Positions 5,176 through 58,519 are shown, counted from the stretch's first letter. The stretch: 64,000 nt of DNA from Candidatus Omnitrophota bacterium (GCA_028699255.1 JAQVUX010000004.1:88668-152667), one strand, 5' to 3'. The notes: a model not told the origin generated them from the sequence alone. Numbers and translations: made by a program.

Positions 5176-5531
5176 TCCCCTGTAGCTCAGTCGGTAGAGC
5201 ATCTGGCTGTGCACGAGCGAAGCGCCGAGTGCAAAACTCGGCGTACAGCGCCTAAAGTTAGCAGCCTGCGACGGAAACGTCGCGGTGAAAAGCGAGTAAA
5301 TTCAGGGAAATCCGTCAATGTATAATTGGCGGGCTATCCTGAGCCAAGCCTCACAATTGTGGGGAAGGTGCAGAGACTAGAGACTCGCTACCTAAGTCCT
5401 TTCGTCATTGCGAGGCCCGAAGGGCCGAAGCAATCTCAAGGGATATGGTAATGGTATAGTCCGACTCTCCGGGTAACCGGAGTCAGATCGTAACCAGAGT
5501 GTCCGAGGTTCGAGTCCTCGCGGGGGAGCCA
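5176..5531 (+). tRNA. tRNA-Asn(GUU) interrupted by a group I intron; exons 5176-5210 and 5491-5531, CCA encoded
   Basis: The exons give the acceptor stem TCCCCTG/CGGGGGA, discriminator G73, D-arm GCTC-AGTCGGTA-GAGC and anticodon stem TCTGG/CCAGA. The anticodon loop CUGU|UAA and T-arm CGAGG-TTCGAGT-CCTCG follow. The spliced sequence is near-identical in layout to E. coli tRNA-Asn. Confidence 0.8.
5211..5490 (+). ncRNA. Group I intron in the tRNA-Asn anticodon loop, 280 nt, no ORF
   Basis: The intron follows a U and ends in G. It contains R-like CAGAGACTA, S-like TATAGTCC and P-like AATTCAGGGAAAT elements, and a P9-like hairpin CCGGGTAACCGG. Confidence 0.7.
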
Positions 5532-6744: not shown

Positions 6745-6780
6745 GGGGACGGTTCTGGCGGCAATCCCAGACCTGTCCCT
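6745..6780. repeat. REP-like imperfect palindrome, copy A (GGGGACGGTTCTGGCGGCAATCCCAGACCTGTCCC)
   Basis: Near-identical to the copy at 8836-8870 and in inverted arrangement to the copy at 7345-7402. It abuts the RAYT gene. Confidence 0.7.
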
Positions 6781-7258
6781 AAAAGAACAGCTCGTCCAGC
6801 AACTTATCCTTTTTTCCTAGGATTCTTGCCTTGTAGCTACTCCAACCGTAATCTTCAGGTCTTAATACGATATTTGCTCTTACGGGATTATATTCTACGT
6901 AGCTTATGCAATTGATAAGGTATTTATCTTTCTGGATCACATGGCTTTTGTACCTATCCTGCCAAAAATGACCCACGCTCTTATATTTATACCTGAAGTA
7001 TTGAGCATAGGAAAGATTTATGCCGTGCATAGCCTTGCTTAAGAAAGAGGACTCCATAACCATATGCACATGGTTATTCATCAGGCACCAACCGTATAAC
7101 TTAAACTTATACCTATCCTTGTACTTGAGTAGAAACTTATAATATGCTCTACAGTCGTTCTCATCCTTAAATATGGCCTGTTTCTGATTGCCCCTTGTTA
7201 TTACATGATAACATACGTTATCCAATATGAGCCTTGCCTGTCTGGGCATACACACCAC
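6779..7258 (-). CDS. REP-associated tyrosine transposase (RAYT) / IS200-like Y1 HUH transposase
   Basis: HVHMVM HuH motif and a C-terminal Y-containing motif. The length is typical for TnpA_REP, and the gene is flanked by inverted REP hairpins. Confidence 0.75.
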   Translation of the reverse strand: MVCMPRQARLILDNVCYHVITRGNQKQAIFKDENDCRAYYKFLLKYKDRYKFKLYGWCLMNNHVHMVMESSFLSKAMHGINLSYAQYFRYKYKSVGHFWQDRYKSHVIQKDKYLINCISYVEYNPVRANIVLRPEDYGWSSYKARILGKKDKLLDELFF

Positions 7259-7344: not shown

Positions 7345-7402
7345 GGGGACGGCTCTGAGATACAATATGGGACAGGTCTGGGATGTCGACCGGAACCGTC
7401 CC
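7345..7402. repeat. REP-like doublet, copy B, two hairpins in inverted orientation
   Basis: GGGGACGGCTCTGAG...GGGACAGGTCTGGG...CGGAACCGTCCC. The second and third segments are reverse complements of copy A segments. Confidence 0.65.
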
Positions 7403-7783: not shown

Positions 7784-8952
7784 ACATTTCTTTAGGAGCG
7801 GATGGAACTCCCAAAAGAAAACGGCGCGTGCGTTATAAGGGCAGGAATCCCCGGCGTTTTGACGAAAAATATAAGGAACTCAATCCGGTAAAATACGCGG
7901 ATGATATCGAGAAGATCGTAAAGAGCGGTAAAACTCCAGCCGGAACGCATCGGCCTATCTGTGTTAAAGAGATCCTGGAAGCCCTTGATCCTAAGCCCGG
8001 GCAAACCGGCTTAGACGGCACTTTAGGGTTCGGCGGCCACACAACGGAACTCCTTCGATGCATTATGCCCGCCGGGCGCCTTTTTGCTATAGATGCCGAT
8101 CCGATCGAGTTAAAGCGTACCGCTACGCGCCTGCGAGCTCTGGGCTTCACCGACAAAGAACTTATTTTTCGGCAAATCAATTTCGCCGGTATCCCTAAAA
8201 TGCTTACTGACGCAGGCGGCGGGTTTGATTTTATTTTGGCGGATCTGGGCGTTTCGTCAATGCAATTAGACAATCCCGCCCGGGGGTTTACCTTTAAATG
8301 GGAGGGGCCGCTTGATATGAGATTTAATCCCGAACGCGGCCAGCCGGCCTCGGCTTTGATCAAGACAATCTCCGAAAAATCTCTGGAAAAAATACTTTTT
8401 ATTAACTCCGACGAACCTCATGCGAAAACGATAGCCGCGGCTATCCATAAGAACTGCCATAAAATTAACACAACTAAAGCGCTTGCGGATACCGTAAAAG
8501 AAGCGCTGACTACTGTAGCGCATGTAGGTTCCAAGGATGAGATAACCACGTCGATCCGCCGTACATTCCAGGCTTTACGCATTGAAGTTAACGACGAGTT
8601 TTCGGCGTTGGAGCAGTTTTTAAGGAATCTACCGATATGCCTTAAGCCCGACGGGCGAGTGGCTATTTTAACCTTTCACTCCGGTGAAGATAACAGGGTG
8701 GTTAAGTCTTTCCGGGATGGATTGAGATCGGGCATCTATTCTGAAATTTCCCGCGATCCAATAAGGCCGACGCCTAAGGAATGTTTTGATAACCCGCGTT
8801 CCAAGAGTGCAATATTACGCTGGGCTATAAAAAATGGGGACGGTTCTGACGGCAATCCCAGACCTGTCCCTCGTAGCGAGCTAAAAATCACACCAAGTTA
8901 CCCATCCTATGATATAATTACTTCCGATGAAAAAGAAAATCCTGATCCTTAA
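7780..8952 (+). CDS. rsmH: 16S rRNA (cytosine1402-N4)-methyltransferase RsmH with N- and C-terminal extensions
   Basis: DGTLGFGGH, DLGVSSMQLD, GPLDMRF, TFHSGEDNRVVK and NPRSKSAILRWA blocks. A ~55-aa basic N-terminal tail is present. The last ~40 codons read through an embedded REP copy. Confidence 0.8.
   Translation: MNISLGADGTPKRKRRVRYKGRNPRRFDEKYKELNPVKYADDIEKIVKSGKTPAGTHRPICVKEILEALDPKPGQTGLDGTLGFGGHTTELLRCIMPAGRLFAIDADPIELKRTATRLRALGFTDKELIFRQINFAGIPKMLTDAGGGFDFILADLGVSSMQLDNPARGFTFKWEGPLDMRFNPERGQPASALIKTISEKSLEKILFINSDEPHAKTIAAAIHKNCHKINTTKALADTVKEALTTVAHVGSKDEITTSIRRTFQALRIEVNDEFSALEQFLRNLPICLKPDGRVAILTFHSGEDNRVVKSFRDGLRSGIYSEISRDPIRPTPKECFDNPRSKSAILRWAIKNGDGSDGNPRPVPRSELKITPSYPSYDIITSDEKENPDP
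8836..8870. repeat. REP-like palindrome, copy C, embedded in the 3' end of rsmH
   Basis: GGGGACGGTTCTGACGGCAATCCCAGACCTGTCCC, one mismatch relative to copy A. Confidence 0.7.
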
Positions 8953-18165: not shown

Positions 18166-18326
18166 TAGAAATAACCGCGTAGGTTATTTGAGTGAATGAT
18201 AGCGGGATAACCGCGTAGGTTATTTGAGTAAAATAACTGGCCAACCTACGCGGTTGGAGGGGTGTTGGTGTCAGATAACCGCGTAGGTTATTTGACGGTA
18301 AGCGCCTGTACAACCTACGCGGTTGG
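18166..18326. repeat. Array of five short palindromic elements (three ATAACCGCGTAGGTTAT, two CCAACCTACGCGGTTGG) in a divergent intergenic region
   Basis: Direct and inverted copies alternate, so the array can fold into two long hairpins. The same 13-mer recurs at 46438-46487 and 46898-46947. Confidence 0.7.
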
Positions 18327-18392
18327 GGTGGTGTTTTAATCTTGCGAACAGTTTTTGTTTAATGTAAAATTGAATGCTTCGAGAGGTGCTAT

Positions 18393-24091: not shown

Positions 24092-24126
24092 GGGGCGCCC
24101 TCAAAAATATGTGCGGCGCCCCTTTT
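24092..24126 (+). terminator. Intrinsic terminator
   Basis: GGGGCGCC/GGCGCCCC stem followed by TTTTGAG. Confidence 0.55.
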
Positions 24127-24300
24127 GAGTTAGATATGATAACCCCGCCGGGAGTGAAAAAAAGGGCGGGGCGATTGCCTGAGTTAGATATGATAACCCC
24201 GCCGGGAGTGAAAAAAAGGGCGGGGCGATTGCCTGAGTTAGATATGATAACCCCGCCGGGAGTGAAAAAAAGGGCGGGGCGATTGCCTGAGTTAGATAAC
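24127..24300. repeat. About 3.2 tandem copies of a 54-bp unit, each with a CCCCGCC/GGCGGGG hairpin and A-rich loop
   Basis: The units at 24127, 24181 and 24235 are identical. They lie immediately upstream of the lrp start. Confidence 0.8.
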
Positions 24301-45796: not shown

Positions 45797-46244
45797 GGGG
45801 GTGAAAGGTATCGACTCAGATACGCAGAGCACAAGCAGCATGTAGAGGTTGCTAGGAGGCCTCTTGGCGCAAGCCATTCCTACGGTAACGTGGGGATAAA
45901 ACACCTGGCAAAAAATCAAATGCTGAAAACGTAAAAGTTCCAGCAACGGTGAACGAACTCCTAAGCACCATGCAAGTGGTGCCGGGGCCAGTTCTACCGG
46001 TAGCGTTACCTTTATAAGGTAACCCGTCAGCCGGCCTATTTCCGCGGGGCCGGGTCTGGCGACACTAGCGGGATAGTCCGACGGTGTTTAGCCTTTGGCG
46101 CTTTCGGGCGAAGCTTTCAAAGGATACCTTTTCGAAATTCCGCCTACTGAAGTTCGAAAGGGGAAATTAAAGAGCAGGATAAACATGTAGCGGCTTATGT
46201 TTTGATGTTTGAGGACGGCGGTTCAAATCCGCCCACCTCCACCA
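45797..46244 (+). ncRNA. ssrA: tmRNA (ssrA), about 448 nt, CCA encoded
   Basis: Lies immediately downstream of smpB. The 5' GGGGGUG...GGUAUCGAC pairs with a 3' tRNA-like end: T-arm GGCGG-UUCAAAU-CCGCC, then CACCUCC-A-CCA. The tag reading frame could not be read confidently by eye. Confidence 0.7.
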
Positions 46245-46437
46245 TACTCTGAAAATCTTTCGAAGAAGATTTTCAGGTCCTGGCGTCTAAGATACTTCGA
46301 TTTTGTTCCACAAAATCGAAGGACTCAGGAAACAACGCGAAGAAAGTTTTCAGGTCCTGGCGTCTAAGATACTTCGATTTTGTTCCACAAAATCGAAGGA
46401 CTGAAGAAGTATTTGTCGCGAGAGCGTTCCGACTACT
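46245..46437 (+). repeat. 3' trailer module Y1 after tmRNA (internal tandem duplication with 11-bp-stem hairpins)
   Basis: Begins TACTCTGAAAATC directly after the CCA. It is near-identical to the module after tRNA-Leu at 46683-46895. Confidence 0.75.
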
Positions 46438-46487: not shown

Positions 46488-46496
46488 TCAAGAGCT

Positions 46497-46556
46497 TTAG
46501 CGGGGCAATAGATACACAGTTGGGCGGAAGTGGCCCGCCTTCGCAATCAAGGCTTA
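46497..46556 (+). pseudogene. Partial duplicate of the tRNA-Leu upstream region plus the first ~12 nt of the tRNA, fused to a TIR-like sequence GGCCCGCCTTCGCAATCAAGGC
   Basis: GCGGGGCAATAGATACACAGTTGG|GCGGAAGTGGC matches 46574-46609 upstream of and into the real tRNA-Leu. Confidence 0.6.
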
Positions 46557-46597
46557 ATATGTTCGATGCTTTGGCGGGGCAAGAGATATACAGTTGG

Positions 46598-46682
46598 GCG
46601 GAAGTGGCGGAACTGGCATACGCGCAGGTCTCAGAAGCCTGTGCCGCAAGGCTTGAGGGTTCAAATCCCTCCTTCCGCACCA
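46598..46682 (+). tRNA. tRNA-Leu(CAG), CCA encoded
   Basis: Acceptor GCGGAAG/CTTCCGC, anticodon loop CUCAGAA, long variable arm, T-arm GAGGG-TTCAAAT-CCCTC. Confidence 0.85.
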
Positions 46683-46895
46683 TACTCTGAAAATCTTTCA
46701 AAGAAGATTTTCAGGTCCTGGAGTCTAAGATACTTCGATTTTTCTCTGAAAAATCGAAGGACTCAGGAAACAACGCGAAGAAAGTTTTCAGGTCCTGGAG
46801 TCTAAGATACTTCGATTTTTCCTGAAATTTTCTCCGAAAATTTCGAGAAAAATCGAAGGACTTTAGGAAGCAACGCGAAGAAATTCAATCGACTA
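46683..46895 (+). repeat. 3' trailer module Y2 after tRNA-Leu (duplicate of Y1)
   Basis: Same start TACTCTGAAAATC after the CCA and the same hairpins. It is followed by the palindrome pair at 46898-46947. Confidence 0.75.
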
Positions 46896-52514: not shown

Positions 52515-53092
52515 TAGCGACCAAAAATGAAAAGAAGCTCCATGAATTAAAGCGTTATCTCAAAGGCGTAGACGCGAAAGTGGTTTCACTCAAAAATTTT
52601 ACGCACGTACCGCGCATAGTCGAGAACGGCGTGACATTTAAAGCGAATGCCGTAAAGAAGGCGCTCGTCATATCGCGTTTTACGAAAGGGCTCGTAATAG
52701 CGGATGATTCCGGCTTGGCGGTCAATGCGCTCGGTGGACGGCCGGGTGTGCGATCGTCGAGATTTGCCGGGCCACGGAAGAGCGATAAGCAGAATAACAA
52801 AAAATTGCTGGAAATTTTGAAGAAGACTCCGCCCGAAAAAAGGCAGGCGCGGTTTGTTTGCGCCGCGGCAATATGCGATAACAACAAGGTGCTTAAAGTC
52901 ATCGAGGAGTCGTGCGCCGGCGTTATAGCGTTCTCCGAAAAGGGCGGATACGGATTTGGATATGATTCGCTATTTCTGATACCAAAATATAAAAAGACCT
53001 TCGGTGAGCTTGGATTAAAAGTAAAAGATAAAATGAGCCACAGGTCTAAGGCGCTCAAAAAGGTTCGCGAGTTTTTAAAAAAGTACTTGTAG
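52499..53092 (+). CDS. rdgB: dITP/XTP pyrophosphatase (Ham1/RdgB family)
   Basis: IVIATKN.KK N-terminus. GFGYDS.F motif. Confidence 0.8.
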
Positions 53093-53103
53093 TATGATAT
53101 AAT

Positions 53104-53176
53104 CGGGGCGTAGCGCATCCCGCCCGGAAGCTGACAGGGGGCGGGACCCCGCCTTGAGTAAAACAGATGGCGGGGG
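53104..53176 (+). repeat. Pseudo-leader module X1: first 14 nt of tRNA-Pro fused to a conserved double GC-clamp hairpin core
   Basis: CGGGGCGTAGCGCA is followed by TCCCGCCCGGAAGCTGACAGGGGGCGGGACCCCGCCTTGAGTAAAACAGATGGCGGGG. A TATAAT-like sequence lies immediately upstream. Confidence 0.75.
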
Positions 53177-53216
53177 CTGGCTAATAACCGGTAGTCGTGT
53201 AGATATTTGTAATTTT

Positions 53217-53293
53217 CGGGGCGTAGCGCAGCTGGCTAGCGCGCTTGGTTTGGGACCAAGAAGTCGACAGTTCGAATCTGTCCGCCCCGACCA
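53217..53293 (+). tRNA. tRNA-Pro(UGG), CCA encoded
   Basis: Acceptor CGGGGCG/CGCCCCG, anticodon loop TTTGGGA, T-arm GACAG-TTCGAAT-CTGTC. Confidence 0.9.
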
Positions 53294-53336
53294 CTGACTT
53301 TGCCGTTGTTCTCTTAGGGCATATTTTATTTTTACG

Positions 53337-53520
53337 CGTCCCTGTAGCTTCCCGCCCGGAAGCTGACAGGGGGCGGGACCCCGCCTTGAGTAAAACAGAT
53401 GGCGGGGCAGTTGGATATTGATTAACAACGTCCCTGTAGCTTCCCGCCCGGAAGCTGACAGGGGGCGGGACCCCGCCTTGAGTAAAACAGATGGCGGGGC
53501 AGTTGGATATTGATTAACAA
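53337..53520 (+). repeat. Two identical 92-bp pseudo-leader modules X2/X3: first 14 nt of tRNA-Arg, the same double-hairpin core, and a 21-nt spacer
   Basis: The units at 53337-53428 and 53429-53520 are identical. Each begins CGTCCCTGTAGCT as the real tRNA does at 53521. Confidence 0.8.
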
Positions 53521-53521
53521 C

Positions 53522-53893
53522 GTCCCTGTAGCTCAGTTGGATAGAGCATCTGCCTTCAATAGGAGCGTCTATGCGGAATATGAACGCATAGAATGAATGC
53601 AGCTATATGCAAGGAACCCCTGTCATACACAGGGCAATTTGCAGGCAACCAAGCGAGCTACAGATAAATCGGTCCATGGGAAGGAGGTGAAGATTGCAAC
53701 ATTAATAACCAAAATCTTCACGTTAAATGGGCCGACGATTATCTGAAGCTCGAATGGGAGTCCTCAGAGACTATACGCTGCACACCTGAAATGGTGAAGA
53801 CATAGTCCAGACCGCAACGTAACAACGGCCGGAGTAATCCGGTGCGGTAAGCTAAGCAGAGGGTCGCCTGTTCGAATCAGGCCAGGGACGCCA
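53522..53893 (+). tRNA. tRNA-Arg(UCU) interrupted by a group I intron; exons 53522-53556 and 53852-53893, CCA encoded
   Basis: The exons give acceptor GTCCCTG/CAGGGAC and G73. The D-arm GCTC-AGTTGGATA-GAGC is identical to that of E. coli argU. The anticodon stem is TCTGC/GCAGA, the loop is CUU|CUAA, and the T-arm is GCCTG-TTCGAAT-CAGGC. Confidence 0.7.
53557..53851 (+). ncRNA. Group I intron in the tRNA-Arg anticodon loop, 295 nt, no ORF
   Basis: Follows a U and ends in G. It contains R-like CAGAGACTA, S-like GACATAGTCC and a P9-like CCGGAGTAATCCGG hairpin. It resembles the tRNA-Asn intron. Confidence 0.65.
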
Positions 53894-54040
53894 TCCGCCT
53901 TCGCATTCAAGGCGTAAAAGAGAGAATGCTTCGGCGGATTTTTATCCGCCATAGCCAGCATGTCGTAAAAGGCAGAAGGCGACGGCGGATGAGCCCGCCG
54001 AAGCACCTTATCTATTAAGCGTTGATTGCGAAGGCGGGCC
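53894..54040. mobile_element. MITE-like element with ~20-bp terminal inverted repeats (CCGCCTTCGCATTCAAGGCG ... GCGTTGATTGCGAAGGCGGG) and internal hairpins
   Basis: Inserted directly after the CCA of tRNA-Arg. A solo TIR-like copy is at 46534-46555. Confidence 0.5.
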
Positions 54041-54053
54041 ATTAAACTCCAAT

Positions 54054-54299
54054 ATGCACTACGTCTATATACTAAAAAGCCTCAAAACCAAAGATAAGCT
54101 CTATGTCGGATTAACCGGCAATCTTGAGCGTCGCCTTAAAGAACACGACGAGACATCAAGCGATCATTACACATATCGCCATCGTCCATGGAAACTCGAA
54201 ACATATATTTCATTTCAAAGTAATTTGGCTGCTAAGAAATTCGAGGCTTATTTAAAAACAGGTTCAGGCAGGGCATTCATTAGGCGGCACCTTATTTAG
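54054..54299 (+). CDS. GIY-YIG nuclease superfamily protein (UPF0213/YhbQ-like)
   Basis: YVYILKS...LYVGLTGNLERRLKEH GIY-YIG core. 81 aa. Confidence 0.8.
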   Translation: MHYVYILKSLKTKDKLYVGLTGNLERRLKEHDETSSDHYTYRHRPWKLETYISFQSNLAAKKFEAYLKTGSGRAFIRRHLI

Positions 54300-54391: not shown

Positions 54392-55015
54392 TTACTTTTC
54401 GGGTGGTTTAGTCGTAAAATCAGGTTTTTTGGCGTCTTTATCAATCCTTCTTAATATAACTTCTCTTGAAACCACAAAATCCCGGGCTAATAATTCAACG
54501 ACCCTATCCATGATAACATCATCATTTTTGATGCCCAAAGCCCTGATCTGCTTTGAATGATATTTTAACCTCTTTTCCAGATGATGGCTTGGCACCAGGA
54601 CTAATCCGGCAAATTGATTCGCCTGCCATTCAAGCCATGACCATTCATCTTCCGGAAAAGTCTCCATAAAATCCTTCCAATCTCCGGTCGTATTGAATCC
54701 GCGATGCTTGTAAACAGCCTCGTGCATAATAGCATGGCCTACCTCATGGGCTAGAGTAAAGCGATATCGGCCTTGTCTATGCTTATATACGTATTCATCT
54801 ATGGAGATATTCGACAAATCTGAGGATATGAAACCGTCGATTTCTATTATTTCGTGAAGTCCGGGGATCGGAATGATATCAATGTTGAGCTTAAGCTCTA
54901 TGATCTCTTCGATCGGAGTGGGGAAGGCATCCCTTGGATGGTATTTGTGCAGGAAATCCGAAGCTATCTTCTTTATGTGGTCGTAGTTTTTGTAAGGAAC
55001 AAATACATCTGACAT
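54392..55015 (-). CDS. ImmA/IrrE family metallopeptidase (COG2856)
   Basis: HEVGHAIMH HExxH motif. Paired with an upstream XRE regulator. Confidence 0.75.
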   Translation of the reverse strand: MSDVFVPYKNYDHIKKIASDFLHKYHPRDAFPTPIEEIIELKLNIDIIPIPGLHEIIEIDGFISSDLSNISIDEYVYKHRQGRYRFTLAHEVGHAIMHEAVYKHRGFNTTGDWKDFMETFPEDEWSWLEWQANQFAGLVLVPSHHLEKRLKYHSKQIRALGIKNDDVIMDRVVELLARDFVVSREVILRRIDKDAKKPDFTTKPPEK

Positions 55016-55018
55016 TCT

Positions 55019-55387
55019 TTACGATTCCTTGATCAATTTTATCAACTTATCGAGCTTCTCTTTCGAGATCTTTTTACCCCTGATGGTGCGGAATAAAAAT
55101 GGCATTCTCGCGACGATCTCTTTTTCCCTAAGCTCCTTTGGCAGCCGGCCTGATTCCGCGGCCGCAAGGTCAAAGAATTCATACCACTCGTTCGACGCCT
55201 CTTTCAGTTTGAGATAATGAGCGTATTTCTTCAATATCTCATCTTTTGGCGGCGGCAACACGCCTCTTTCAATCTTACTTAAATTTCCAGGATCCATGCT
55301 GTGTTTCTCGCAGAATTGGCGCAGCGTCATGCTCAGCTTTATTCTTCTATCTTTAAAATACGAGCCGAATGTTTTACGTCCGTCCAT
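55019..55387 (-). CDS. XRE-family helix-turn-helix transcriptional regulator
   Basis: LSMTLRQFCEKHSMDPGNLSKIERG HTH. Confidence 0.7.
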   Translation of the reverse strand: MDGRKTFGSYFKDRRIKLSMTLRQFCEKHSMDPGNLSKIERGVLPPPKDEILKKYAHYLKLKEASNEWYEFFDLAAAESGRLPKELREKEIVARMPFLFRTIRGKKISKEKLDKLIKLIKES

Positions 55388-55492
55388 TTTAGTCGCCCCC
55401 CTCCTTGTCTATTATAAGTATACCATGTAGTAATAAAATTACAACACTTAAATGCAAAATATTTATTTTCTAACATTGGGAAGGGTGATGGG

Positions 55493-55867
55493 TTAATGCG
55501 CTAGCTTATTCCAAGCCTCGAGTTGCTTCTGCCAGTAGATTTCTTTGGCTATGCCGCGGATTTTACGCTCTGTAACCTTACGGATTTTGTCGGTGTTTAG
55601 CAATAATATCTCCTTCTGTATTCTAGGACACAGGAGGAGCAGGCTTGTTATCTGTTTTATCCTCGTATAAGTTATACCAAGCCATTCGGCGATTTGGCTC
55701 AGATCCTTTGCCTTCTCTTCACAAAGCGCTCCTTCTATTTGATTAGATAGCACCAGATATTGTCGTAGCTTCGGCTCGTTTGCTATCTTGGCCATATGAT
55801 ATCGATAAGACTTATGCCTTACGGGCTTTATATCAACTTTGAATTCATATTTTAGATTCGTATTCAT
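55493..55867 (-). CDS. Hypothetical protein with possible HTH
   Basis: LSQIAEWLGITYTRIKQI segment. No other motif recognised. Confidence 0.3.
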   Translation of the reverse strand: MNTNLKYEFKVDIKPVRHKSYRYHMAKIANEPKLRQYLVLSNQIEGALCEEKAKDLSQIAEWLGITYTRIKQITSLLLLCPRIQKEILLLNTDKIRKVTERKIRGIAKEIYWQKQLEAWNKLAH

Positions 55868-56252
55868 AAAATCTATAATTATTTAAGACCATATCCAGCT
55901 TACCAGTCGTTCCGTCGTATTTTACTTCTTTAACCATGCGTTTTAATGCCTCATGTTTTAACTGTGGGAATAGCGCATCCCAGATGGCGAGAATTTCTGT
56001 CAGTTCTTTTTGTGGCATCTTGCCAAGGCAATCTATTACAGAGTCCTCTATAGCCTGTGCATTTACCGATTTGGTAGGGCACGAATTTGAGCCTTGTTTT
56101 TGAACACTTTGGCAGACATAATATCTGTATTTATATTTACCTCGCATCGCATAGGTATGGAACATTGCTTTGCCACAGGCCTTACAACGCAAGATATCGC
56201 TGAGTGGGGCTGTATTTCTCGAATAACCAGCCTTCTCGCGTGTTACGCGCAT
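55845..56252 (-). pseudogene. C-terminal fragment of a large serine recombinase (zinc-ribbon/coiled-coil region only)
   Basis: CxxCG...YYxC...C recombinase zinc beta-ribbon. No resolvase catalytic domain is encoded upstream. Confidence 0.55.
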
Positions 56253-56319
56253 CTTATATTGACACCATATCTCTCGAGGCTTATAATTAACATAAATAAG
56301 CTATATTCCTTTGGCTACA

Positions 56320-56456
56320 TATAAAAGGAAGCGGGGGAACCAAGCCACGGTCTACGATAGATCTTGGGGCGAATATCTAAAATATCTACAATGTAGTAGA
56401 TTAGGGTCACTCAACCCGAGCCCGACAGCTAACCCCGTAAGCTAACATGAGAGAAT
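56320..56456 (+). promoter_or_regulatory. Candidate c-di-AMP riboswitch (ydaO/kimA class) in the kdp leader
   Basis: GCGGGGGAACCA, UUGGGGCGAAUAUC, and GGGUCACUCAACCCGAGCCCGACAGCUAACCCCGUAAGC resemble conserved ydaO-motif segments as recalled from memory. An intrinsic terminator follows. Confidence 0.55.
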
Positions 56457-56458
56457 GC

Positions 56459-56773: not shown

Positions 56774-58519
56774 ATGAATTGGAATAATATTATTCAAGGC
56801 GGGATCTATCTTATAGCGCTAATCCTATTAGTTAAGCCGCTTGGGACATATATGGCCCGCATATACGAGGCAAAACCCGTTGGTCTTAACGTATGGTTTG
56901 GGCCTATTGAAAGATTAGTTTATCGCGTGTCAGGTATTAATCCTGAAGCAGGTATGTCTTGGAAGACATATGCTTTGGCAGTAATGATGTTCAATATTAT
57001 TGGCATAGTCGTTGTTTACGCTATTCAGAGACTTCAGCCACATCTTCCCCTAAACCCAATGTCCATACCACAAGTCCCCCCAGACTTAGCTTTCAATACC
57101 GCTGTGAGCTTTGCTACAAACACCAACTGGCAAAGTTATGGTGGGGAGGCCACATTAAGCTATTTTACTCAGATGATGGCTTTAACAGTTCAGAATTTTG
57201 TGTCAGCGGCAACGGGCATGGCAGTGCTTGTGGCTGTGATAAGAGGATTTATCCAAAAACAAACGGAAACCATAGGTAACTTCTGGGTAGATCTTGTTCG
57301 ATCTACATTATATATACTGCTTCCACTAGCTATAATACTTTCCGTTGTATTGGCTTCCCAGGGTGTTGTTCAGACATTTGCTCCGAGCGTAAAAGCTACG
57401 CTTATCGAAGCAACTAAAGATGCTACTGGAAAGATTGTTCCTGAACAGGTGATAGCTCTCGGTCCTGCCGCTTCTCAAATAGCTATTAAACAGCTAGGAA
57501 CTAATGGGGGAGGGTTTTTCAATGTCAATTCTGCCCATCCCTTTGAGAACCCCACGCCTCTGTCAAACTTCGTGGAGGTTTTGGCCATACTTTTAATAGC
57601 TGCAGCATTATGCTATACATTCGGATACATGGTTAAAGACAGGCGCCAAGGATGGGCGATTCTGGCCGCTATGTTAATTATCTTTATCCCATGTCTCTGG
57701 TTATGTACGCACATTGAACAACAGGGGAATCCTTTGTTAAGCAAATTAGGAATTGATCAGAGTGCGAGTGCTATGCAGCCAGGCGGTAATATGGAAGGCA
57801 AGGAAGCACGTTTTGGCATCGCGAATTCAGCTTTATGGGCAACAGCTACGACTGCCGCCTCCAATGGTTCGGTCAACTCAATGCATGATTCTTACATGCC
57901 TCTTGGCGGGATGATATCGATGTGGCTTATGCAATTAGGGGAGGTTATATTTGGCGGGGTTGGTTCAGGTCTTTACGGTATGATCGCATTTATTATTGTC
58001 GCTGTATTTATATCGGGCCTTATGATAGGGCGCACTCCCGAATATTTAGGAAAGAAAATCGAAGCGTATGAAATGAAAATGGCTTCTCTTATGATTTTAA
58101 TACCTCCGATGATTGTTCTTATGGGCACAGCCATTTCGGTAATTGTGCCTGCTGCTAAAAACTCAATTTTAAACCCTGGGCCGCATGGATTTAGTGAAAT
58201 ATTATATGCTTTTTCATCGGCAGGAAATAACAACGGAAGCGCGTTTGCGGGTTTAACTACGAATACGTTTTTCTATAATATCGCTCAAGGATTAGCGATG
58301 TTTTTCGCTAGATACTGGCTTATAATACCGGCTCTTGCGATAGCCGGATCACTTTCTAAGAAAAAGATAGTGCCTGTAAGTCAAGGAACTTTGCCTACAC
58401 ATACGCCGCTTTTTATTGTATTTCTGGTTATGGTTATATTGATTGTAGGTGCGCTCACTTTTTTCCCGGCATTGGCTCTTGGGCCTATTGTTGAGCACTT
58501 AACCCTTACTTCTATATGA
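56774..58519 (+). CDS. kdpA: K+-transporting ATPase subunit KdpA
   Basis: Typical KdpA N-terminus and selectivity-filter-like G-rich loops. Length 581 aa. Confidence 0.9.

Follow-up and report, generated by a model that had tools for sequence, protein, structure and literature searches.

Transfer RNA (tRNA) genes are classical landing sites of large integrative elements, and the gene is restored by a copy of its 3' end that the element carries. Williams 2002, as cited in PMC9897764, places the identity blocks of classical attachment (att) sites between the anticodon loop or the T-loop and the tRNA 3' end. Repetitive extragenic palindromic (REP) sequences of the GTAG-1/2 families have extra bases between tag and stem, and REP clusters reiterate in tandem together with flanking DNA (PMC3733652). 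In phage T6, the GIY-YIG nuclease SegB cleaves within tRNA genes, and a tandem amplification joined at microhomology depends on this nuclease activity (PMC13096335). Here, we analysed a stretch of 64,000 nucleotides (nt) from Candidatus Omnitrophota bacterium (GCA_028699255.1, JAQVUX010000004.1:88668-152667; the whole stretch is called the window), in which a 58-nt double-hairpin core lies within short partial copies of tRNA-Pro and tRNA-Arg just upstream of the intact genes. Our leading interpretation, for and against which we judge the case evenly balanced, is that the core is a hairpin element that targets tRNA genes, is non-autonomous and resides within partial duplications of them. In contrast to classical integration, these elements are tiny, non-coding and located within tRNA sequence, the fragments are mostly 5', and their borders are structural boundaries of the tRNA.

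Dead tRNA copies split by a double-hairpin core

The core (TCCCGCCCGGAAGCTGACAGGGGGCGGGACCCCGCCTTGAGTAAAACAGATGGCGGGG) occurs three times in the window without a mismatch, at 53118-53175, 53350-53407 and 53442-53499, and does not occur in shuffled sequence. Its fold comprises a first GC-clamped hairpin, with an 8-pair stem and a 13-nt loop, and a second one, with a 7-pair stem and a 15-nt loop that a preliminary description of this DNA gave as 16 nt. Across 12 copies, each hairpin spans 27-30 nt with a 7-8-bp stem, and stem pairing is 100%. The preliminary description had reported one module upstream of tRNA-Pro and two upstream of tRNA-Arg, the latter as perfect 92-bp copies, and both observations held: the three cores are identical, and Tandem Repeats Finder reports 2.1 copies of a 92-bp period with 100% identity at 53337-53533.

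Upstream of the core, the Pro module consists of tRNA-Pro nt 1-14, while each Arg module consists of tRNA-Arg nt 1-12 and the base at -1. The modules had been described as tRNA 5' ends fused to the core. The 5' ends are indeed present, but tRNA sequence resumes past the core, as nt 15-21 of tRNA-Pro (GCTGGCTA) and, in each Arg unit, nt 13-21 of tRNA-Arg (CAGTTGGATA); in all three modules the similarity ends exactly at the last base of the D-loop. Therefore, each module is a dead copy of tRNA nt 1-21 that the core splits in two. The insertion point once proposed at 14/15 applies to tRNA-Pro, whereas in tRNA-Arg the core sits at 12/13, and the supposed 21-nt pre-tRNA spacer is in fact 10 nt of tRNA followed by a 12-nt spacer. 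The earlier view that the modules are not classical 3'-end attB duplications was supported. The features of the region are as follows, X and Y' being the parts of the dead copy ahead of and past the core.

53074-53103, plus strand: predicted sigma-70-like promoter, TTTAAA-18-TATAAT with TG, abutting the first base of the Pro module
53104-53117, plus strand: X(Pro), dead copy of tRNA-Pro nt 1-14, 11 nt past the rdgB stop codon
53118-53175, plus strand: core copy 1, 58 nt, (T)CCCGCCC-N13-GGGCGGG(A) and CCCCGCC-N15-GGCGGGG
53176-53183, plus strand: Y'(Pro), dead copy of tRNA-Pro nt 15-21, to the last D-loop base
53184-53216, plus strand: Pro spacer, 33 nt, AT-rich, with no second copy in the window
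53217-53293, plus strand: intact tRNA-Pro(UGG), found by ARAGORN and Rfam
53338-53429, plus strand: Arg unit 1, with X (nt 1-12) at 53338-53349, core at 53350-53407, Y' (nt 13-21) at 53408-53417 and spacer at 53418-53429
53430-53521, plus strand: Arg unit 2, identical to Arg unit 1, with X at 53430-53441, core at 53442-53499, Y' at 53500-53509 and spacer at 53510-53521
53522-53893, plus strand: tRNA-Arg(UCU) with a group I intron, exons 53522-53556 and 53852-53893, 295-nt intron 53557-53851

The net change at the Pro gene is a 113-bp insertion. Since the intact tRNA-Pro of relatives starts 5-26 nt past the rdgB stop codon, a distance like that of X(Pro), the dead copy stands at the ancestral position of the tRNA 5' end. 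The sequence of the promoter region (TGATATAAT) is also found ahead of the unmodified tRNA-Pro of a relative, L009.

A search of 52900-54100 against Rfam at permissive thresholds revealed no family for the core, only tRNA, group I intron and chance-level matches. We considered and rejected the hairpins as intrinsic terminators: a scan of the region reported nothing resembling a terminator, and the core lacks a T-run on its 3' side. A fold-back origin through complementarity between X(Arg) and the loop of hairpin 1 (CCCTGTAGCTTCC / GGAAGCTGACAGGG) was set aside, the complementarity being confined to the core variant of the window.

Distribution and turnover of the core

Loop-tolerant core patterns were scanned against one genome per species, metagenome contigs and viral contigs. 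The genome scan returned four stretches, all from two Candidatus Omnitrophota metagenome-assembled genomes, and a second pattern returned four more from metagenome contigs; the viral contigs gave none. All eight stretches are from Omnitrophota or show the same type of context, with the core in tRNA-derived flanks beside a tRNA, which answers the preliminary description's concern that it might be limited to two loci. Furthermore, a covariance model (R1) built from 12 core copies and searched over 180 kb of DNA found 13 full cores scoring 73-89 bits, every one in tRNA sense and none outside a tRNA context. Full copies lie within tRNA-derived sequence beside an intact tRNA, involve seven isoacceptors and occupy the D-arm, the T-loop or the acceptor stem. 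Single-hairpin relatives scored 25-31 bits; they comprise two other sites and the following repeat.

24126-24298, plus strand: 3.2 tandem copies of a 54-bp unit ahead of an Lrp-like gene, every unit with one weakly related hairpin and a local flank copy, TGAGTTAGATA

This repeat had been assigned to the same hairpin family as the core. A relationship does exist, but it is weak and limited to a single hairpin, with 29-31 bits against 73-89 for true cores.

The commonest position is 12/13 (AGCT-core-CAG), seen in tRNA-Thr(UGU), tRNA-Val, tRNA-Arg(UCU), tRNA-Thr(CGU), tRNA-Asn and, with decayed flanks, tRNA-Met. Two orthologous pseudo-tRNA-Val copies carry the core in the T-loop (GGTT-core-CAAGTC), and at 56/57 it splits a 3' fragment that lies downstream of an intact tRNA-Thr. 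In L009, a relative reached through RdgB, a tRNA-Arg(CCG) fragment has a core at 6/7 and a single hairpin at 13/14. Overall, insertion points fall at 11/12-14/15 in the D-arm, at 55/56 and 56/57 in the T-loop and at 6/7 in the acceptor stem. In five of six clear cases the first base of the tRNA is also that of the duplicated block (in L009 the block starts at -4); its end lies at nt 21-24, or at 60/61 in the T-loop type. These borders coincide with structural boundaries of the cloverleaf, unlike what random tandem duplication would be expected to produce.

Between module and intact gene there is in every case a gap of 12-56 nt without an open reading frame (ORF). Simple tandem duplication or unequal sister exchange would make these spacers copies of the upstream flank, but we found no significant similarity except at tRNA-Leu. 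Nor do they resemble the rest of the tRNA, as the decayed remainder of a full-length pseudo-tRNA should, and no template for them was found elsewhere in the window. A 5' tRNA fragment devoid of hairpin was seen at none of 22 tRNAs.

Two side observations concern hairpins in tRNA sequence. On contigs L005 (12000-12620) and L007, a tRNA-Thr(CGU) sequence is interrupted by the core at 12/13 and, in the region of the D-loop, by a further 48 nt; no intact 5' copy follows downstream, and the contigs diverge immediately past the anticodon loop. A pseudogene, an integration junction and an intron that went unrecognised are all conceivable explanations. In the genome STD1_81 (L017 2450-2745, L003 4250-4350), another hairpin family, GCTTCGTAGGAAT...CCTACGAAGC with an GCGAAGTAGAA motif, surrounds tRNA-Pro, tRNA-Arg and tRNA-Met, and distinct hairpin families may thus occupy tRNA flanks in distinct genomes.

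Comparison of two orthologous pseudo-tRNA-Val copies provided both an empty and a filled site. In STD1_81 (L003), the D-arm is uninterrupted (TTAGCT-CAGCTGG) and only the T-loop core is present, while in the fen_1320 ortholog (L002) a second core separates AGCT from CAG exactly, and no base is duplicated. The core is therefore a precise insertion without target duplication. Across copies it measures 57-59 nt and keeps a single orientation, tRNA sense. Its stems are almost invariant and its loops variable, although both loops keep a GAG-N3-RACA-type motif. In both genomes, the dead tRNA-Val copy shares the genome-specific state of the live gene at four of five differing sites, including a compensatory pair of the anticodon stem. 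Dead copy and live gene thus evolve in concert, and so perfect tRNA-derived flanks need not mean function.

The preliminary description had called for a comparison with relatives lacking the modules, and four genomes provide it: L009, L015, L017 and L018 keep the order rdgB-tRNA-Pro-tRNA-Arg with neither module nor intron. RdgB of these genomes is about 81% identical to that of the window. In contrast, fen_1320 is the most distant by RdgB (71.6%); it contains a single Arg module along with a Pro fragment that has decayed (nt 2-11, then CCCGCCC, then an NN gap). At tRNA-Arg(CCG), a module is present in L009 and absent from L015. The conflict between module presence and RdgB identity implies either repeated gain or repeated clean loss of modules; recombination between X repeats would give such clean loss. 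The core also amplifies locally in tandem, as the 92-bp units at tRNA-Arg illustrate.

Minimal GIY-YIG genes, introns and neighbouring features

The module observation of the preliminary description stands, but the interruption of nt 1-21, the intron of tRNA-Arg and an adjacent minimal GIY-YIG gene had been overlooked. The features beyond the tRNA-Arg CCA, and a related module elsewhere in the window, are listed here.

53894-54038, plus strand: second type of GC-clamped hairpin element, directly past the tRNA-Arg CCA (TCCGCCTTCGC...), with a closing inverted repeat, GCGAAGGCGGG, then CCA
54054-54299, plus strand: GIY-YIG ORF, 81 amino acids (aa), catalytic domain alone (Pfam PF01541, 54.3 bits)
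46494-46597, plus strand: module upstream of tRNA-Leu(CAG), with a copy of nt 1-11 (46524-46534), a long hairpin of CCGCCTTCGC type and an 18-nt spacer

The 81-aa ORF begins 160 nt past tRNA-Arg. By sequence, its nearest solved relatives (best PDB matches) are SLX1 and UPF0213, and it scores 18.8 bits with the NCBIfam group I intron endonuclease model, whose cut-off is 56. Its homologs are widespread, many on short contigs, and mostly have 78-131 aa, with about 80 as the typical length. When the ORFs of the Omnitrophota DNA compared up to that stage were all searched with a profile, three GIY-YIG ORFs emerged, each no further than 300 nt from a tRNA locus with modules; module-free loci had none. 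Besides the ORF of the window, that of fen_1320 lies between rdgB and the Pro fragment, and that of STD1_81 between tRNA-Met and the pseudo-tRNA-Val. Furthermore, wherever the context was informative, homologous ORFs of 79-100 aa had a tRNA gene no more than about 300 nt away. Our literature search found no report of tRNA adjacency for small bacterial GIY-YIG genes, nor one of an element combining a tRNA fragment with a hairpin.

Two contigs carrying such ORFs show variable arrays. In L027 (2240-2490) and L028 (2189-2490), which are otherwise near-identical, a tandem array of CCGCCTTCG...CTTCGGCGG hairpins separates tRNA-Arg(CCG) from the GIY-YIG ORF, and the number and order of hairpin units differ, which points to ongoing expansion and contraction. 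L032 (1737-3134) bears two different minimal GIY-YIG ORFs, downstream of tRNA-Val and of tRNA-Asp. Past the second gene come copies of tRNA-Asp nt 61-76 and nt 57-76, after which the gene occurs once more, and the T-loop breakpoints of these copies are the same as in the Omnitrophota modules.

The second hairpin type has homologs in other genomes, where they separate tRNA 3' ends from GIY-YIG genes, and it is also homologous to the hairpin of the tRNA-Leu module. The latter module has a second, partial unit 74 nt upstream (41 nt, 93% identical). tRNA-Leu is on the opposite side of smpB in relatives, showing that this region has been rearranged. It also contains a 162-nt direct repeat, 91% identical, whose copies span the 3' end and trailer of transfer-messenger RNA (tmRNA; 46220-46381) and of tRNA-Leu (46658-46819). 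Each copy is followed by a AACCGCGTAGGT...ACCTACGCGGTT hairpin (46440, 46900), and the same hairpin forms a 69-bp repeat at 18206-18335. The tag predicted for the tmRNA itself (45797-46244), AENVKVPATVNELLSTMQVVPGPVLPVALPL, is unusually long, and its C-terminal part is conserved in related genomes.

The intron of tRNA-Arg scored 44.8 bits (E 6.6e-10) with the Rfam group I model, below its gathering score of 50. It lies in the anticodon loop between U34 and C35, and the joined exons give a canonical tRNA-Arg(UCU) identical to the intron-less gene of relatives; five related genomes have the identical tRNA-Arg without intron. A further tRNA of the window, tRNA-Asn(GUU) at 5176-5531, has a 280-nt group I intron at 5211-5490 (Rfam, 70.5 bits), its joined exons again forming the expected tRNA, so that both genes combine a model match with canonical joined exons. 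In metagenome contig L008, tRNA-Asn has no intron but does have a core module. ARAGORN makes no tRNA-Arg call because of the 295-nt intron, and with tRNA-Asn it misses two of the four tRNA genes identified in the window. In practice, such fragments and introns make tRNA finders overlook or miscall genes in uncultivated phyla.

Further downstream, a low-GC block beside tRNA-Arg (54392-56252) encodes an ImmA/IrrE-type peptidase, a helix-turn-helix protein and a serine-recombinase fragment reduced to its zinc-ribbon part, and is probably what remains of an element that integrated next to this tRNA. A c-di-AMP (ydaO-type) riboswitch (56289-56458, 84 bits) precedes the ORF at 56774-58519.

Candidate mechanism, alternatives and known systems

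If the core is a tRNA-gene-targeting hairpin element, its spread could be pictured as follows. Cuts in a tRNA gene would fall on its structural boundaries, namely at nucleotide 1, where loop and stem meet (21/22 or 60/61), or at the 3' end. Filling-in of the staggered break and rejoining with filler DNA would duplicate nt 1-21 (or 1-60, or 57/61-76) and leave the gene intact. The hairpin element would be captured at an arm of the dead copy or inserted there later, this arm being the only site where a hairpin insertion would not be lethal. The likeliest cutting agent would be the minimal GIY-YIG (SLX1/UPF0213-like) nuclease of the small tRNA-adjacent genes, such as the ORF at 54054-54299. Recombination between X repeats might then expand the array, or delete it cleanly and restore a module-free locus.

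More tentatively, and with considerable doubt, we propose that these parts form a previously undescribed bacterial mobile system that homes to tRNA genes and heals itself. A structure-specific minimal GIY-YIG nuclease would nick at cloverleaf boundaries, the gene end would be duplicated so that the gene survives, and hairpins or the nuclease gene would be installed in the dead copy. Among the members of such a system, the 58-nt core and the CCGCCTTCGC hairpin would be non-autonomous, and others autonomous.

Several points weigh against the leading interpretation. The 81-aa GIY-YIG protein has no DNA-binding domain of the Seg type and its nuclease role is a prediction, and a GIY-YIG gene is nearby at just 3 of about 10 module-bearing loci. 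A staggered cut alone leaves the presence of a hairpin in every 5' fragment unexplained, and no template for the spacers was found in the window. Perfect Arg and Pro flanks fit a recent origin or gene conversion, but are likewise compatible with selection for function. The tRNA-only context is drawn from the 180 kb and the public-scan stretches, 64 kb of the source genome among them, and the rest of that genome may hold cores in other contexts.

Selection for function is at the heart of one alternative, which we consider improbable: that the modules form a functional pre-tRNA leader, cotranscribed with the gene, whose GC hairpins and tRNA-like flanks serve processing, stability or regulation. 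Such a leader might shield the end of the upstream rph-rdgB mRNA after RNase P cleavage, or compete with the true 5' strand for the 3' strand of the acceptor stem; indeed, in an RNA fold of 53093-53296, the X of the module can pair with the acceptor-stem 3' strand of the genuine tRNA. The tRNA sense of every copy, the strong promoter-like site abutting the Pro module and the contrast between perfect tRNA-derived flanks and unalignable spacers are in line with this idea. So are the five variant stem cells, all C-to-T changes that retain G-U-compatible pairing on the tRNA-sense strand, with one pair compensated. However, the modules are missing from the same locus in four related genomes, and insertion points vary with the tRNA (6/7, 11/12, 12/13, 14/15, 55/56, 56/57). 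The flanks can decay around an intact core, as in the tRNA-Met module of L003, and no Rfam family matches. Like those of mobile repeats, the stems hardly vary in sequence. Covariation falls short of significance, its score being reached by 68 of 500 shuffles, although the near-invariance of the stems leaves the test powerless.

A second alternative, equally improbable in our view, makes the core a REP-type element or bacterial interspersed mosaic element (BIME), mobilised on single-stranded DNA by a REP-associated tyrosine (HUH) transposase (RAYT), with the GIY-YIG genes as bystanders. The G7-T8-A9-G10 of the tRNA beside the D-arm hairpin would then mimic the GTAG tag of REPs and attract insertion. 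The core hairpins do conform to the imperfect GC-rich palindromes of 20-40 nt that characterise REPs, and they share with REPs and BIMEs near-invariant stems, tolerance of G-T pairs, tandem copies with flank and a lineage-specific copy content. Reiteration with flanking DNA is known for REP clusters (PMC3733652), and insertion in a fixed orientation without target-site duplication (TSD) suits HUH transposition. The tRNA's own GTAG lies 5' of hairpin 1 in D-arm copies (3 nt, range 1-5 nt), resembling the GTAG-1/2 families. In addition, the window holds a RAYT-like gene (6781-7251, minus strand; Pfam Y1_Tnp, 53.9 bits; NCBIfam REP_Tyr_transpos, 77 bits with a cut-off of 80).

This gene, in a low-GC stretch, nevertheless stands between its own inverted 34-nt palindromes, GGGACGGTTCTGG...CCAGACCTGTCCC (6746-6779, 7369-7402), with a further copy at 8855-8870. 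It looks like a small REPtron whose palindromes are unrelated in sequence to the core, and the 64 kb examined contain no RAYT gene bracketed by core-like palindromes. Whereas REPs are numerous and dispersed in intergenic space, the core is low-copy and confined to tRNA-derived sequence, both in the 13 copies of the 180 kb and in the eight public-scan stretches. A GTAG or CGTC tag does not appear to be constant, GTAG being absent from T-loop and acceptor-stem copies and from hairpin 2. Its two hairpins are arranged head-to-tail, which is rare for REPs, whose pairs are inverted, and no TSD flanks it; for these two reasons REP/BIME membership is not shown. The preliminary idea of an inserted palindromic element followed by repair comes close to the evidence, and the core does behave like a palindromic insertion in the D-arm of a tRNA sequence, but the REP label is not established.

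It is still less probable that the modules are attL/attR-type scars of integrases acting on the 5' part of tRNA genes, the element having carried a replacement nt 1-21 before being deleted down to the spacer, with the core as a secondary insertion or arm-site remnant. As in att fragments, a complete tRNA is accompanied by a partial copy. The identity block, extending from tRNA nt 1 to where a stem-loop ends, is the mirror image of classical blocks. The X copy at the ancestral position and the integrated-element remnants beside tRNA-Arg, serine-recombinase fragment included, would also suit such scars. Here, by contrast, the fragments are mostly 5' and split by a hairpin, and although nt 1-21 is repeated, only 12-56 nt and the core separate the repeats, with no integrase gene or other ORF between them; known fragments of this kind are separated from the complete gene by kilobase-scale elements (PMC9897764). 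This short distance makes integrase scars unlikely, as at least six independent deletions to less than 60 nt would be needed. Finally, an artefact of metagenome assembly has next to no likelihood: tandem units of 92 bp do pose assembly difficulties and an NN gap interrupts the orthologous region of fen_1320, but the same architecture appears in independent NCBI, JGI and ENA assemblies.

Other palindromic elements offer partial parallels to a tRNA-targeting hairpin element. Like miniature inverted-repeat transposable elements (MITEs) and the palindrome elements of the IS200-IS605 group, the core is small, non-coding and structured, with inverted termini (TCCCGCC...GGCGGGG). Unlike classical MITEs, which have a TSD, it has none, as the filled L002 and empty L003 sites reveal. 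Insertion in one orientation without TSD is shared with IS200/IS605, but the core has no room for subterminal guide and cleavage sites, and no autonomous partner with core-like ends was found in the DNA examined. Small palindromic mobile repeats and tRNA-targeted mobile DNA are known kinds; what is unusual is the apparent link to minimal GIY-YIG nucleases.

In this respect, SegB is the closest working precedent, by analogy, for nuclease-driven duplication of tRNA genes, and we do not claim Seg-family membership for the proteins described here. Both have a GIY-YIG domain encoded next to tRNA genes, and in our own comparison the SegB cleavage motif, RAWTSGAAC, resembles the T-loop box. Seg proteins are of about 200-250 aa with a C-terminal DNA-binding domain and SegB is phage-borne, whereas the proteins near the modules have 79-100 aa, consist of the catalytic domain only, are chromosomal and are nearer to SLX1 and UPF0213. 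The duplications differ as well, being gene fragments of 20-60 nt and not whole genes. To our knowledge, GIY-YIG proteins of about 80 aa form a very widespread family with no known role at present. If the GIY-YIG link is true, this family would gain a function and a mechanism of mobility, and the principle exemplified by SegB, nuclease-driven duplication at tRNA genes, would extend from phages to bacterial chromosomes.

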